Of a DNA stretch of 64,000 nucleotides, positions 2,658 through 52,688 are shown one piece after another. This stretch comes from Enterobacteria phage Aplg8, in the sequence record NC_054902.1. One strand, given 5' to 3'. A model generated the notes under the pieces. It was not told where the DNA came from, did not search any database, and worked only from the letters and a program-made list of their open reading frames with translations. Every line of letters begins with the position of its first letter. Position 1 is the first letter of the stretch. The position numbers were made by a program, and so were the translations under genes.

Positions 2658-3982
2658 TTGATTTCCTCTAAATCTTTAGTGTATTCGGTAACTACATCAG
2701 TAGTTTTCCAATATTCGTTTTCTTCTTTCTTAGCTTTAGCTTCTTCAGCAAGTTTCTTTGCTTCGTCGGAAGTCATATGAAAAATATTCATTCCGACTAG
2801 TTTATCAACATAAGAAGAATACATCTCAATTTTAGAAAGTTCTTCGGTCAGTTCTTTACGAGTTTTACCTTGAACAACAATTTCACCTGAAATTACTTTC
2901 TTAATGAAATGTGCCTTGGCAAAGGCTAAACGAAAAGCTGACTCAGTTTCTTTGATTTTGTTATCAATTCGTTTTTGGACATAAGTTTTACGAACTTCAA
3001 CAAAGTCTTTAATTAAATCAACTACGTTATCGTAAACTTGCAGTTTTCCTTTCTCATTAATGACGGTAATATTCTGAGAACGACGCTCAATCAACCCGAA
3101 GTCTTTCATAATTTTTGCATGGCGTTCTTCTTCATTATCGCTCAAAGAATATTCTTTACGGAATTTAACTTTGAATCCAAAACCATGCTCACCACAAGCA
3201 TCATCCCATGTAATGAAGCCTTTATCTTCAAGTGGGTCTAAGATTTTACTCACATAAGTTTCACGATCATACTTATACGGAATCTCAGTGATATGCATTT
3301 GAGTTCGTGAAGTAAACTTATATGTTCCACGAATTTCATATTGCCCATCAATTTCAACGACTTCACCACGAAATTCTGGGAATTCTACCTTCGGTTTAGT
3401 TACTTTCTTTCCTTGAAGAGCTTGCAGTACAGCTTTCTTAACAGAAGAAACACTATGAGGAAGAATGTAAGTTGCATAACCAGTTGCAATACCGGAAACG
3501 CCATTAAGAAGAACAGTAGGAATAATAGGCAAATAGAAAGCAGGCGGAATGTGTTCTTTATCTTGATGTACCGGAGCATATTCAGTATCTTTATATACGT
3601 TATAGAAATTTTTACTTACACGAGCAAAAATATAACGACTTGCTGCTGCTTTTTGGACGGTACGAGAACCGAAGTTTCCTTGACCATCTAACAAAGGAAA
3701 GTTATTATTCCAAGTGTTAGCCATCAAAGCCCCCGCATCTTGTGCAGAGTTTTCACCATGGTGATATCCAAGGTCCGCTACACCACCTGCAATAGAAGCG
3801 AGTTTGTGAAACTTATCTTTATTTCCTCGTGCCAAATCAAGAGCTCGAGCAATAACAAATCGTTGAACTGGCTTAAATCCATCAATCATATTTGGAATAG
3901 CACGATTTTCAACCGTGTACATAGCATAAGCCAATGCTTCATTATCAATGATACTTTTTAAATCGCGATTATTCAGTTGCAT
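2654..3982 (-). CDS. 52: DNA topoisomerase II medium subunit gp52 (GyrA-like)
   Basis: 442 aa, same length as T4 gp52; GyrA/ParC-like N-terminal motifs (FKPVQRFVI...); position between motA and rIIB. Confidence 0.9.
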   Translation of the reverse strand: MQLNNRDLKSIIDNEALAYAMYTVENRAIPNMIDGFKPVQRFVIARALDLARGNKDKFHKLASIAGGVADLGYHHGENSAQDAGALMANTWNNNFPLLDGQGNFGSRTVQKAAASRYIFARVSKNFYNVYKDTEYAPVHQDKEHIPPAFYLPIIPTVLLNGVSGIATGYATYILPHSVSSVKKAVLQALQGKKVTKPKVEFPEFRGEVVEIDGQYEIRGTYKFTSRTQMHITEIPYKYDRETYVSKILDPLEDKGFITWDDACGEHGFGFKVKFRKEYSLSDNEEERHAKIMKDFGLIERRSQNITVINEKGKLQVYDNVVDLIKDFVEVRKTYVQKRIDNKIKETESAFRLAFAKAHFIKKVISGEIVVQGKTRKELTEELSKIEMYSSYVDKLVGMNIFHMTSDEAKKLAEEAKAKKEENEYWKTTDVVTEYTKDLEEIK

Positions 3983-22564: not shown

Positions 22565-23024
22565 TTGTTTTACCTAAAACAATAGTAGGAGCATCGTCAA
22601 ATTCATGAATTTTTAGCAATTTTGGATTTAAATTATTCCATACATAATAAATAAAGTATGATAAAGCATCTTCACTCGCAATTATAAATTTATTTCCTTC
22701 ATTTATTTTCCAGTCATATACTGAATCGTACGAATAAAAAGATAAAGGATTACCATTATATTGTTCTGCGCTAACATTAATGTATTCGGATTTAGTAAAT
22801 GCTTCAATTGCTCTAAACGGACTATTTGGCACAGTTTCAATAATTCCGATCTTTTTAAGTTTTATTTCAACATCTTCTGGAACTGGCATTGAAACGAAAT
22901 TTTCTACGAGATACATAGGGTTACAATAACCCCTATCAATCACTACGGCTACAGTAATTGGAACATCTTTAGCAAACGACATGCTATTACTGCTAATATA
23001 CATTTCAAACAAAATCGCTTCCAT
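22539..23024 (-). CDS. mrh: Mrh-like protein
   Basis: 161 aa from MEAILFEMY with GAGGAAAA SD; length equals T4 Mrh. Confidence 0.45.
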
Positions 23025-23935: not shown

Positions 23936-23943
23936 TATTTAAA
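23936..23943 (-). promoter_or_regulatory. late promoter-like TTTAAATA box upstream of soc
   Basis: minus-strand TTTAAATAAAAGGAGAATTACATG; one mismatch to the TATAAATA late consensus. Confidence 0.45.
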
Positions 23944-24148
23944 TTACATGATTATTTATAATAAATTCTCGCGGAACGTTAAAATACCCAATTTTAGTTA
24001 ATATAACAATATCGCCGTTAATAATTACCGGAGAATAATCGGCTGGAGCATTAAATTTCCAATGGGCTCTAATATTATATCCATCAGAACCAAATGCTCG
24101 ACTAGCCGGTCTCCCGGCTTTTTGCCACGCGTAGAAATCAAATTTCAT
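23939..24148 (-). CDS. hypothetical protein (soc.1 position)
   Basis: 69-aa ORF between soc and 56, where T4 carries segF. Confidence 0.5.
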   Translation of the reverse strand: MKFDFYAWQKAGRPASRAFGSDGYNIRAHWKFNAPADYSPVIINGDIVILTKIGYFNVPREFIINNHVI

Positions 24149-24339
24149 TTTGAATGATCTATAATTAATTTTAAATCTTCTTCACTGACAAAAATTTCGT
24201 CAGGACCTTCTATAACTTCAACCATACGAAGTTGATTAGTTAAGAGCTCACATACGAGCTCCTTGTTATAATCTTTAAATAGCTGGTCAATACGTTTCTT
24301 GCGGGCTTTCTTAAGCTGGCGTTTATTTAAACGAGCCAT
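24145..24339 (-). CDS. hypothetical protein (soc.2 position)
   Basis: 64-aa ORF. Confidence 0.5.
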   Translation of the reverse strand: MARLNKRQLKKARKKRIDQLFKDYNKELVCELLTNQLRMVEVIEGPDEIFVSEEDLKLIIDHSK

Positions 24340-24857
24340 TAATAGCCTCTGTCTTGACGAGCGAAGTTTTCAGCATTTTTCAGATAATAAAGTTTAAATA
24401 TTTCTTCAGCTGACATTCCAAGAGCAATGAATTTATTCATGAAAAAGTGAAATTGATCAATCAGTTCAAATTTAATTTCAAGTTGATCTTCAGGAGATAA
24501 ATCTTGAATTTTCTTGGATTGCATTTCAGAATAACGTTTCTTCCAAGGTTTCCATACAGCAGAAGCTTCTTTTTCACCATTACTCATACCACCAAGAGAA
24601 GTATATAGCTCGCGAGTTTCGTCTGCGATATAATCGTCTTGGTTTCGCAGCCAAGCAAGAACTTCTCCTGCAGTTTCAAGTGAATCAGGATGACGATTTG
24701 TTTCTGGTTTATCATTAGCCAAACGAATCTGTAAATGCCGCTGCATATCAAGCATAACCTGCAGTGGGTCAATATTGTGCATAATATTCTCAGCATATGC
24801 ACGATTTGCTTTATCAACACCTTCGATCAAATGAGCACATTCATTAAAGTAAGCCAT
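24339..24857 (-). CDS. 56: gp56 dCTPase/dUTPase (MazG-like NTP pyrophosphatase)
   Basis: 172 codons from MAYFNECAHLIEG; MazG-like motifs; C-terminus ...YYLKNAENFARQDRGY. Confidence 0.85.
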   Translation of the reverse strand: MAYFNECAHLIEGVDKANRAYAENIMHNIDPLQVMLDMQRHLQIRLANDKPETNRHPDSLETAGEVLAWLRNQDDYIADETRELYTSLGGMSNGEKEASAVWKPWKKRYSEMQSKKIQDLSPEDQLEIKFELIDQFHFFMNKFIALGMSAEEIFKLYYLKNAENFARQDRGY

Positions 24858-24891
24858 TATTTTTCCTTTCAATTCATGGGTTAGTAGATTA

Positions 24892-24917
24892 ATTATACAA
24901 TAAATATATAAAGCAAT
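24892..24917 (-). promoter_or_regulatory. MotA-dependent middle promoter for gene 56
   Basis: minus-strand ATTGCTTTA (perfect MotA box) - 11 bp - TATAAT. Confidence 0.65.
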
Positions 24918-24928
24918 AAGGAGGACAT

Positions 24929-25129
24929 ATGATACAAAAATTAATGGCACTTGTTAATGCCATAAAAGGTAATAAGAAACGTATAGCTTTTACTATTTCT
25001 GCTATGGTAGGAATTTTACTCTGGAACTTTATTTTATCACCTGTTGCAATTGCACATGGTATTAATATTCCAGTAGTTACTCTTGATACATTCGTAGATT
25101 TAGCATTTGCTTTAGTTGGGTTAATTTAA
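24929..25129 (+). CDS. small hydrophobic protein (66 aa), plus-strand
   Basis: AAGGAGG SD 5 nt before ATG; AATAAATA late-promoter-like box at 24897..24904; two hydrophobic segments; fills otherwise non-coding 56-61 gap. Confidence 0.5.
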   Translation: MIQKLMALVNAIKGNKKRIAFTISAMVGILLWNFILSPVAIAHGINIPVVTLDTFVDLAFALVGLI

Positions 25130-26154
25130 ATCTTAGCATATTTAGATAACCTCATTTTAGCCATCAACCCCTGGGCAATATTATTTTTCATATATTCCAT
25201 AATTTGTTCAGGGGTTGCACCTTCCTTTCTAATCATATCATTAACATCTTTTGATTTCCAGGGAGATTTATCCCAAAACATAACTCTTTCTCCTGCATCA
25301 ACTAATTTAGTCATTCGTTTGATAGTGTCAGGATGACGAGGTTCATTATCTAAAACCCACACACGTCTATCTTTAAATGGAACAACTTCTAGGTCTAATT
25401 GACCACCCGTAATAGCTATACCATTTTCAATAAAAAGTGAATCTATAGGTCCTTCTAGAACATATACATCACCATCTTTAACTCGTTCGACTCCATAGAT
25501 TTTTGTTGCTTCAGGATAAGCTTTGATGGTGATATATTTTTGGGGAGCATCTTTCTTTAATGCACGTCCTTGAAAAGACTCAGCTTTTCCATTAGCATTA
25601 TAAATTGGAATAACAAGACGAGGCTCAGAAATTTCCTTTTTGTATGTTCCCGGTGCTATGCTATTAACTAATTTAGGCCATTCGGTTGTAAACCAAAGAT
25701 ATTTCCATTTATCCTTTGGAATACAACGAGCTTTTACATATTTTATAATTGGATGGTCTTCCGCCAGTTTATCTAATCTAACACATGACGGAAGAGATTT
25801 AATTATTTTCTTCTCAGGTTGCTTAGGAAGTTCTTTAGGTTTTTCTACTGGACGACTTTTACCTTTTTCTTTTCTTATTTCAAAGATATACTCACGATAT
25901 AAATCAGGTTCAAACTCCTTTAAATATATTCCGATTGGTGCATGATAATTACAGTTATAACAATGAATATTTCCTTCATTATTATCACCATAATACCATC
26001 CACGAGCTTTATTCTGGTCGGTTTTTGAATCTCCACAAACAGGACATCTAAACCGCAATTTAAAAGTTGAACTATTATTTACTTGTGTGAATTTAGGTAA
26101 ATGAGCTAATGCACGGTATGCAAACTCATTATCAATCCAAGGTATTGATGACAT
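25126..26154 (-). CDS. 61: gp61 DNA primase
   Basis: 342 aa (T4 gp61 length); N-terminal zinc ribbon CPVCGD...CYNC; Toprim-like core. Confidence 0.9.
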   Translation of the reverse strand: MSSIPWIDNEFAYRALAHLPKFTQVNNSSTFKLRFRCPVCGDSKTDQNKARGWYYGDNNEGNIHCYNCNYHAPIGIYLKEFEPDLYREYIFEIRKEKGKSRPVEKPKELPKQPEKKIIKSLPSCVRLDKLAEDHPIIKYVKARCIPKDKWKYLWFTTEWPKLVNSIAPGTYKKEISEPRLVIPIYNANGKAESFQGRALKKDAPQKYITIKAYPEATKIYGVERVKDGDVYVLEGPIDSLFIENGIAITGGQLDLEVVPFKDRRVWVLDNEPRHPDTIKRMTKLVDAGERVMFWDKSPWKSKDVNDMIRKEGATPEQIMEYMKNNIAQGLMAKMRLSKYAKI

Positions 26155-26156
26155 TT

Positions 26157-26321
26157 TTACTCTTCTTTTTCTTTAGATTCCTCTTTCTTCTTTTTAGGAA
26201 TCTGTTCAGGACCTTTATTTACTACAGCACCTGACGTTGTTCCAGTAGAGATATTTTCAGGATTACCGCCTGAATCTCCAGCGACCATATCTTCTTTAAT
26301 AAATTCTTTATATGTTTTCAT
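26157..26321 (-). CDS. hypothetical protein (61.1 position), 54 aa
   Basis: hand-translated MKTYKEFIKEDMVAGDSGGNPEN...KKKKEESKEKEE. Confidence 0.45.
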   Translation of the reverse strand: MKTYKEFIKEDMVAGDSGGNPENISTGTTSGAVVNKGPEQIPKKKKEESKEKEE

Positions 26322-39699: not shown

Positions 39700-39707
39700 T
39701 ATAAATA
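39700..39707 (+). promoter_or_regulatory. late promoter TATAAATA (plus strand) for the HNH gene
   Basis: exact TATAAATA 33 nt upstream of ATG at 39741, with AAGGA SD in between. Confidence 0.6.
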
Positions 39708-39740: not shown

Positions 39741-40457
39741 ATGAATTATAAACTAATTTATGAAAAGTTAATCTCTAATGCTAAATCTCGAAAACTTGAT
39801 TGCTATACTGAATCTCATCACATTATACCACGCTGTTTAAATGGCAGCGATGATGCCTCAAACTTAGTAGATTTAACACCAGAAGAGCACTATGTAGCTC
39901 ATCAACTTTTAGTAAAAATTTATCCTTCTGAACCAAAATTAGTCTATGCTGCTAACATGATGACAGTTTCCACGAAATACGCTAAACGTAACAATAAAAC
40001 TTTCGGTTGGATTCGTCGTAAACTCTGGGAAATAGAAAAGAATAAAGAATTCTCCCAGGAGACACGAAAGAAAATGTCTGATGCAGTAGCTAATAAAGCA
40101 AGACTAACTTGTCCACATTGCGGTAAGTCCGGATTAAGCGGGAATATGAATCGATGGCATTTTGATAACTGCCCGAATCACCCTAATCCTAAAGTTAGAC
40201 CACCGATGTCTAAAGAACACAGAAATAATATCTCAAACGGGCTTAAAGCAATCATTCTTGAAGAAACATCCTGCGAATTCTGCGGAATGATAGGCAAGAA
40301 ATGCGTTATCGCAGCGCATAGAAATTTCTGCAAGAAAAATCCAAATGGACGCAAGAAAACTGAAAAGACTGGTACTTGCGTCCATTGTGGTAAAGTTACC
40401 ACTTTCGGAAATTTATCAAGATGGCATAATGATAACTGTAAATATAAACCTAGCTAA
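39741..40457 (+). mobile_element. free-standing HNH homing endonuclease gene (Mob-like), convergent with gene 46
   Basis: 238 aa; HNH motif ESHHIIPRCLNGSDDASNLVDLTPEEHYVAHQ; three C-terminal zinc-ribbon repeats CxxC...RWHxDNC; only long plus-strand ORF among minus-strand early genes. Confidence 0.8.
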
Positions 40458-52652: not shown

Positions 52653-52677
52653 ACCCTTACCTTAAATAGATAAGGGT
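52653..52677 (-). promoter_or_regulatory. gene 49 RBS-sequestering hairpin with adjacent late-promoter-like box
   Basis: mRNA ACCCUUA-11 nt loop-UAAGGGU, 3' arm covers SD 7 nt before AUG; AATAAATA box abuts 5' arm. Confidence 0.55.
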
Positions 52678-52688
52678 ATTTATTATTT

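Follow-up and report, generated by a model that had tools for sequence, protein, structure and literature searches.

What occupies the short interval between gene 56 and gene 61 of this T-even phage, and is it a gene? The original prediction, made from the letters of the 64,000-nucleotide stretch analysed here (the window), placed in a gap of about 270 bp a 66-codon plus-strand open reading frame (ORF) for a small membrane protein with its own late expression signals, and remarked that dam, which T4 carries there, is missing. The window belongs to Tequatrovirus: it shares 99.3% identity with phage RB18 over positions 24300-26200, a region of which 393 phage records cover at least 80%. Gene 56 (dCTPase) runs on the minus strand at 24339-24857, with its ATG at 24857, and gene 61 (DNA primase) follows on the same strand at 25126-26154. 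The gap between them measures 268 bp and contains the ORF, which lies at 24929-25129 on the plus strand, has the translation originally quoted (66 amino acids) and ends in TAA. The ORF is convergent with gene 61, and their stops overlap as described, a TTAA palindrome at 25126-25129 supplying a TAA stop to each strand. The TTAA junction is also present in Mosigvirus and in loci L017 and L025 of our comparison, and in L026 the junction is CTAG, which gives a TAG stop to the ORF and another to the opposite strand. On the far side of gene 56, the minus strand between soc and gene 56 (23939-24339) carries two small ORFs of 69 and 64 amino acids, whose RB18 equivalents are labelled ‘RB18ORF026’ and ‘soc.2’; T4 has the segF homing endonuclease in their place.

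A frame of this kind might be a chance opening in an intergenic spacer. It is short, and it lies in AT-rich DNA, where an open frame of 69 codons has a chance of about 0.01 per frame. In T4 the dam-61 gap contains an intact version with 95% identity (NC_000866.4 17738-17938, equal to L003:4739-4939), which is annotated neither in NC_000866.4 nor in the 1984 record X01416. Against chance stands the presence of the ORF in more than 690 genomes, at least eight lineages of which were examined in detail. In all eight lineages compared, the ORF frame alone is free of stops. Differences between the window and Mosigvirus ORFs number 29, 13 and 42 at codon positions 1, 2 and 3, respectively, and the dN/dS ratio within genera is 0.07-0.43. 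These ratios, together with the single frame that stays open in every lineage, already refute a chance origin, to which we give practically no credence. At the level of sequence, conservation is the decisive evidence that the ORF exceeds chance. Coding on the minus strand was considered and rejected: the -2 frame is open in Tequatrovirus and Mosigvirus, and has one to three stops in Gaprivervirus, L017 and L018.

The distribution of the protein was explored at two depths. A tblastn search with the window protein returned 691 phage records, with identities of 89-100% in Tequatrovirus, about 55% in Mosigvirus and 44-51% in Gaprivervirus. A family profile built from 19 members, searched with HMMER against 1.84 billion cluster representatives, returned nine proteins, four of them distant relatives at about 30% identity; the matches were exclusively small proteins of the same size and motif as the ORF product. 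All full-length profile matches whose context was checked sit in the 56-61 slot. Where context was available, each distant relative is the only gene on the plus strand of the 56-61 interval and converges either on the primase gene itself or on a single gene inserted beside primase; the distant family members match T4-like phages of Klebsiella, Citrobacter and Salmonella. In two of the loci examined, DK-13 and L026, one extra gene separates the ORF from the primase gene, these being the only exceptions encountered. In DK-13 this is a homing endonuclease (L005:3372-4121), located after the ORF and a degraded second copy; in L026 it encodes 124 amino acids. A lack of conservation in relatives, named at the outset as a point that would tell against the ORF, was thus not found, the relatives keeping it in the same slot. 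What has been observed directly is the frame with its expression signals, its conservation, its constant location and the action of purifying selection. The claim of a translated gene agrees with this pattern, and on such comparative evidence the ORF is a genuine protein-coding gene of T-even phages.

It is also a gene already known, as a catalogued hypothetical protein with annotations in hundreds of phage genomes. The product is 100% identical to RB18 YP_010066914.1, and RB14 and RB18 annotate the same ORF as RB32ORF030w, “similar to RB69ORF029w”. Residues 3-66 match positions 2-65 of the 65-position profile of PHROG 2024 (“unknown function”) with an E-value of 2.2e-31, and the ORF is arranged as in that family, alone on the plus strand between 56 and 61 and converging on primase. 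The distant members match PHROG 2024 as well, as does a second copy of the gene in Gaprivervirus. Although the T4 copy is missing from the two T4 records above, another T4 record annotates it as a hypothetical protein. We did not find the ORF in the literature on its names, on T4 ribosome profiling and small ORFs, or on start-site and antisense maps; a T4 omics paper leaves it unmentioned and was built on the reference annotation, which lacks it.

The Gaprivervirus second copy is a tandem paralogue directly 3' of the first in phages of the VR26 type (L012:2201-2401; L005:3235-3375; L006 about 3190-3420). It encodes 66 amino acids, matches PHROG 2024 with an E-value of 3e-27 and has its own Shine-Dalgarno site, with no separate late box within 60 nt upstream; it is truncated or degraded in DK-13 and TH40. 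A six-frame scan of the window with the extended family profile found no paralogue of the ORF.

If the ORF is an established member of the 56-61 interval, has it taken the place of dam? The gene order in T4 is 56, dam, a 309-bp unannotated gap and 61. The absence of dam from the interval in the window was correctly noted, and T4 does carry it between 56 and the ORF. The implied exchange of one for the other does not hold, since T4 has the ORF adjoining dam. As for dam elsewhere in the genome, tblastn with T4 Dam found no homologue in the window (best E-value 0.022), and none was found in RB18 at 55,000-154,999; the few kilobases of RB18 left uncovered are apparently mostly tail-fibre genes. 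About 182 phage records contain Dam (90% identity or more) and about 500 the ORF (80% or more), so that dam behaves as a presence/absence cassette within Tequatrovirus. Its boundaries can be read by comparing window 24858-24928 with L003:3787-3846 and L003:4627-4738. Similarity to the T4 56-dam spacer extends through the MotA box, after which the window sequence passes directly into the Shine-Dalgarno site of the ORF, and an 11-nt sequence, AATTATACAAT, is common to the window and the region upstream of T4 dam. This arrangement suggests that dam was gained or lost by recombination between two promoter regions. GATC occurs 69 times in the window, compared with about 201 expected from base composition alone, in a genome segment that lacks dam at the T4 position.

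We then considered when the gene is likely to be expressed. The strong ribosome-binding site claimed for it is present, a Shine-Dalgarno AAGGAGG at 24918-24924 on the plus strand, separated from the ATG by 4 nt (ACAT) and not by the 5 originally given. The site recurs in all lineages, as AAGGAGG, AAGGAG or CAGGAGG in most and as a weaker TGGAGG in L025. The possibility raised beforehand that AAGGAGG is no more than the complement of the minus-strand promoter is contradicted by its position outside that promoter; T4, whose MotA-type gene 56 promoter is beyond dam, keeps it too. Upstream, the late-promoter-like box was also rightly recognised, although its distance of 25 nt was approximate: AATAAATA, an A(-13) variant of TATAAATA, occupies 24899-24906 on the plus strand, 22 nt from the ATG. 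Transcription is predicted to start near 24912. In T4 the corresponding plus-strand start is predicted about 6 nt after GATAAATA, near NC_000866 position 17,723. The ORF accordingly has the arrangement of a late gene, with no -35 element and with a TATAAATA-type box that precedes the predicted start by about 6 nt.

The box is kept wherever the gene is. A NATAAATA box starts 22-41 nt before the ATG, accompanied by a Shine-Dalgarno site, in each of 25 loci, which represent at least eight different upstream contexts. Its relation to the promoter on the other strand varies: it lies wholly inside the 11-nt spacer of the minus-strand middle promoter in the window, between a MotA-like box and the Shine-Dalgarno site in Mosigvirus, across the MotA box in Gaprivervirus, and in the spacer of the putative dam early promoter P(E)17.40 in T4. 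Such shifts against the promoter of the other strand show that the box has not merely been carried along with the neighbouring DNA, and the comparison provides evidence for a late promoter that would be maintained but mobile among lineages. The claimed late-promoter element thus finds a counterpart, box and Shine-Dalgarno site together, in all lineages examined.

ATAAATA itself is five-fold depleted in the window, with seven sites observed and 38 ± 6 expected: 1734(-), 22647(+), 23953(-), 24900(+), 26521(+), 39701(+) and 52677(-). Three of the six copies other than that of the ORF precede genes that are known to be, or obviously look, late: soc (a perfect TATAAATA), an HNH endonuclease ORF and gene 49 (AATAAATA). 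The HNH-type homing-endonuclease-like ORF (238 amino acids, 39741-40457 on the plus strand) is a lone late-strand gene in the early region, and its box at 39700-39707, about 33 nt before the ORF, is a perfect TATAAATA. The copies at 22647(+) and 26521(+) are antisense to early genes, have no obvious ORF behind them and could be late antisense promoters.

Among the T4 late promoters that have been listed, 32 of 50 are perfect and nine of 50 have A at -13 (PMC2988020). T4 early and middle transcripts all have one polarity, and late transcripts have either (PMC2988020). A plus-strand gene in the early block can therefore only be late, early and middle transcripts having the opposite polarity, and late timing is what we infer for the ORF. 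At -13, where the consensus has T, no lineage does; the base there is A, G or C throughout. A box that is never a perfect TATAAATA may make for a weak promoter, and its recurrence suggests, for lineages that are not independent of one another, a promoter deliberately sub-optimal or kept weak.

The promoter on the other strand is exactly as originally described, a MotA box, 11 nt and TATAAT for gene 56 that overlap the late signals of the ORF. The MotA box consensus is (a/t)(a/t)(a/t)TGCTT(t/c)A, followed after 11-13 bp by a -10 element TAnnnT. In the window, ATTGCTTTA (24917-24909), an 11-nt spacer and TATAAT (24897-24892) make up a minus-strand promoter at 24892-24917 that has the features of a MotA middle promoter. 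The region aligns with the T4 56-dam intergenic region, where X01416 annotates the mot-box and -10 element of P(M)16.53. On this alignment the gene 56 promoter of the window corresponds by homology to P(M)16.53, which in T4 is the oriA promoter.

Such an overlap raises the alternative that the late promoter and its transcript are the selected feature and the peptide is incidental. Late RNA polymerase in the spacer would occlude the gene 56/oriA middle promoter, and the late transcript, running antisense to gene 61, would turn off both primase and origin firing. That the box lies inside the 11-nt spacer in the window, and inside that of the putative dam early promoter in T4, fits this proposal, as does the report that several T4 sites are transcribed on both strands at different times (PMC2988020). 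We found no plus-strand terminator between the ORF and gene 61, which also speaks for it and makes antisense transcripts into gene 61 possible. On the minus strand, a scan of the region located a terminator-like hairpin with a T-run at 24944-24963, inside ORF codons 6-12; with two terminator-like sites found in the region and 1.5 expected, it is not significant alone. Its sequence is not kept in Mosigvirus. The hairpin might weakly terminate transcription that has passed through gene 61, and ‘terminator’ features are annotated there in some deposited records. An RNA function, however, cannot explain why an amino-acid motif persists at 30% identity, why codon position 2 varies little and dN/dS stays below 0.45, why the Shine-Dalgarno site and ATG are kept, or why one frame is universally open; the box, moreover, shifts with respect to the promoter on the other strand. 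We therefore judge it highly improbable that the peptide is incidental. An RNA effect could exist as a second function beside the protein, without replacing the coding explanation.

Returning to the coding gene, we asked what its product might be. The proposal of a small membrane protein fits the presence of one strong hydrophobic helix with a positive-inside bias. The best 19-residue Kyte-Doolittle mean is 1.76-2.62 in all members, and in eight of eight representatives 5-6 K and R residues precede the hydrophobic segment and 0-2 follow it. By the positive-inside rule, this bias predicts an N-in/C-out topology. Judged solely by hydropathy and charge, the product is accordingly predicted to cross the inner membrane once, with a cytoplasmic N-terminus. 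An AlphaFold2 model made with the family alignment has a mean pLDDT of 78 and helices at residues 2-12, 16-42 and 52-63. The C-terminal 25 residues are hydrophobic, with a net charge of -2 and no K or R. Residues invariant in alignment A1 include K13, K17, W32, N33, F34, P38, G44 and P48, along with V56, D57, G64 and L65. The core W-(N/D)-x4-P-x5-G-x3-(P/S)-x4-(D/E) is kept in nearly all distant members. W, P38 and G44 persist even in the most distant of them, as does an acidic side chain near position 53; in the second Gaprivervirus copy the acidic position of the motif is missing.

No relative of assigned function emerged from wider searches. Pfam, NCBIfam and PADLOC scans, including those at E ≤ 10, gave no significant match, a sequence-profile search of the PDB gave no matches, and Foldseek comparison of the AlphaFold2 model with viral structures recovered members of its own family alone. 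An Rfam scan of 24300-25700 gave sub-threshold noise and no family.

The same hydrophobic segment can be read as a signal peptide. Residues 1-42 would then be a long signal peptide of a Sec pre-protein, cut by signal peptidase I after the A-x-A of P-V-A-I-A, before HG, and the remaining ~24 residues (HGINIPVVTLDTFVDLAFALVGLI), hydrophobic and acidic, would be set free on the periplasmic side. In favour of this reading, family members repeatedly show P-x-A-x-[A/T/S] and then [H/Y/K/Q]-G, Pro is found at -6 and small residues at -3 and -1, and the N-region is positively charged. The hydrophobic core, on the other hand, is 18-24 residues long, the length of an anchor and not of a signal peptide; it contains an invariant W-N-F, unexpected in a signal peptide that is to be discarded, and Mosigvirus has Leu at -3. 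An uncleaved anchor is favoured because the core is both long and highly conserved, and we consider cleavage improbable.

A small hydrophobic protein with inferred late expression also invites comparison with a holin, a pinholin or another membrane-depolarising toxin-like peptide; antisense early transcripts would silence it until late in infection in the manner of type I toxins. The relative from vB_EcoM_OE5505 is named ‘Holin’ in UniProt, one distant member has a sub-threshold match to the holin family phrog_11161 (E-value 0.012), one of 19 members has a sub-threshold match to Ldr_toxin (E-value 0.1), and the ORF is wholly overlapped by antisense early and middle transcription units. However, no holin or toxin family is matched significantly, and Pfam and NCBIfam gave no holin match even at E ≤ 10. 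Slightly acidic and hydrophobic, the C-terminus is unlike the charged hydrophilic tail typical of holins, and the gene is not linked to those for endolysin (e), holin (t) or spanins: in RB18, e is at 62.6 kb and the spanins at 133.7-134.3 kb, with the ORF at 16.4 kb. T4 t-null mutants do not lyse, and phage keep accumulating in the cell. The lysis defect of t mutants argues against a second lethal membrane function at native levels. A holin or toxin thus seems very unlikely to us, and we rejected the ‘Holin’ label of vB_EcoM_OE5505 for want of homology, a charged tail or linkage to lysis genes.

With the uncleaved anchor preferred, a mechanism can be outlined. The 66-residue product would insert into the inner membrane as a single-pass protein, with an N-terminal amphipathic helix and the KGNKKR cluster on the cytoplasmic side, one transmembrane helix at about residues 19-42, and the C-terminal ~24 residues, including a short helix, on the periplasmic side. 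A polar Asn within a transmembrane helix is a classic driver of helix association. W32-N33 in the helix, together with the juxtamembrane P38, G44, P48 and D/E53, may promote helix-helix association, which would take place late in infection with another copy of the protein or with a partner membrane protein.

Taken as a whole, the ORF is in our view probably a real, late-transcribed gene for a membrane protein. Confidence does not extend to its role: whichever single process is named, the assignment is at best unlikely to be the right one. The most plausible suggestion, and a speculative one, is a low-abundance accessory factor in envelope or lysis-timing events, and not a lethal pore. A bolder version would make the product a universal late membrane factor of enterobacterial T-even phages that serves an envelope process and whose promoter acts as a switch; we consider it very improbable. 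Were it true, candidate processes would be the sensing or relay of the lysis-inhibition signal, or the anchoring of an assembly step at the inner membrane, and the late box would double as a temporal switch, occluding the oriA/gene 56 promoter and sending antisense transcripts into the primase gene.

Although T4 ranks among the best-studied model viruses, a gene that it carries intact, and that more than 690 relatives in several genera share, is missing from the annotation of its RefSeq entry NC_000866.4. Proteomic and genetic screens based on that annotation cannot see the ORF, and adding it would be a cheap correction. The ORF offers a defined candidate small late membrane protein for assays of lysis timing, superinfection and fitness. 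The late box in the spacer of an opposite-strand middle promoter, which in T4 is the oriA primer promoter, is a compact case for studying interference between temporal promoter classes. In other respects the ORF is an ordinary hypothetical gene, catalogued already.

Several known systems bear comparison. Set beside RB32ORF030w, RB69ORF029w and RB18 YP_010066914.1, the ORF is the same gene in the same position and on the same strand, with no difference; their family, PHROG 2024, has no Pfam or NCBIfam model and no assigned function. The expression signals resemble those of T4 A(-13) late genes such as gene 49, whose box is at 52676-52683 on the minus strand, and of soc, with its perfect TATAAATA. 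All share a layout of box, about 20-45 nt and start codon, isolated inside a block of early genes, and soc, like the ORF, has a clear Shine-Dalgarno site. In contrast to these genes, late transcription of the ORF is a prediction, and its box departs from consensus at -13 in every lineage.

Among membrane proteins, the product is like holins (T4 T, classes I-III and the pinholins) in its small size, predicted membrane location and presumed late expression, but has no sequence or profile similarity to them, and T4 already has an essential holin. Type I toxins such as Hok, Ldr and TisB are likewise encoded by genes for short hydrophobic peptides under antisense transcription, whereas at 66 amino acids the ORF product exceeds most of them, and no dedicated antisense sRNA was identified (the Rfam scan was negative). 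T4 RI antiholin (with its SAR domain), Sp and Imm are small envelope proteins of T-even phages in which, as predicted here, a hydrophobic anchor or signal at the N-terminus is joined to a periplasmic portion. A window-wide profile scan showed no similarity to the three; Sp and Imm are early, and the periplasmic domain of RI is globular with about 75 amino acids, compared with about 24 residues in the ORF product.
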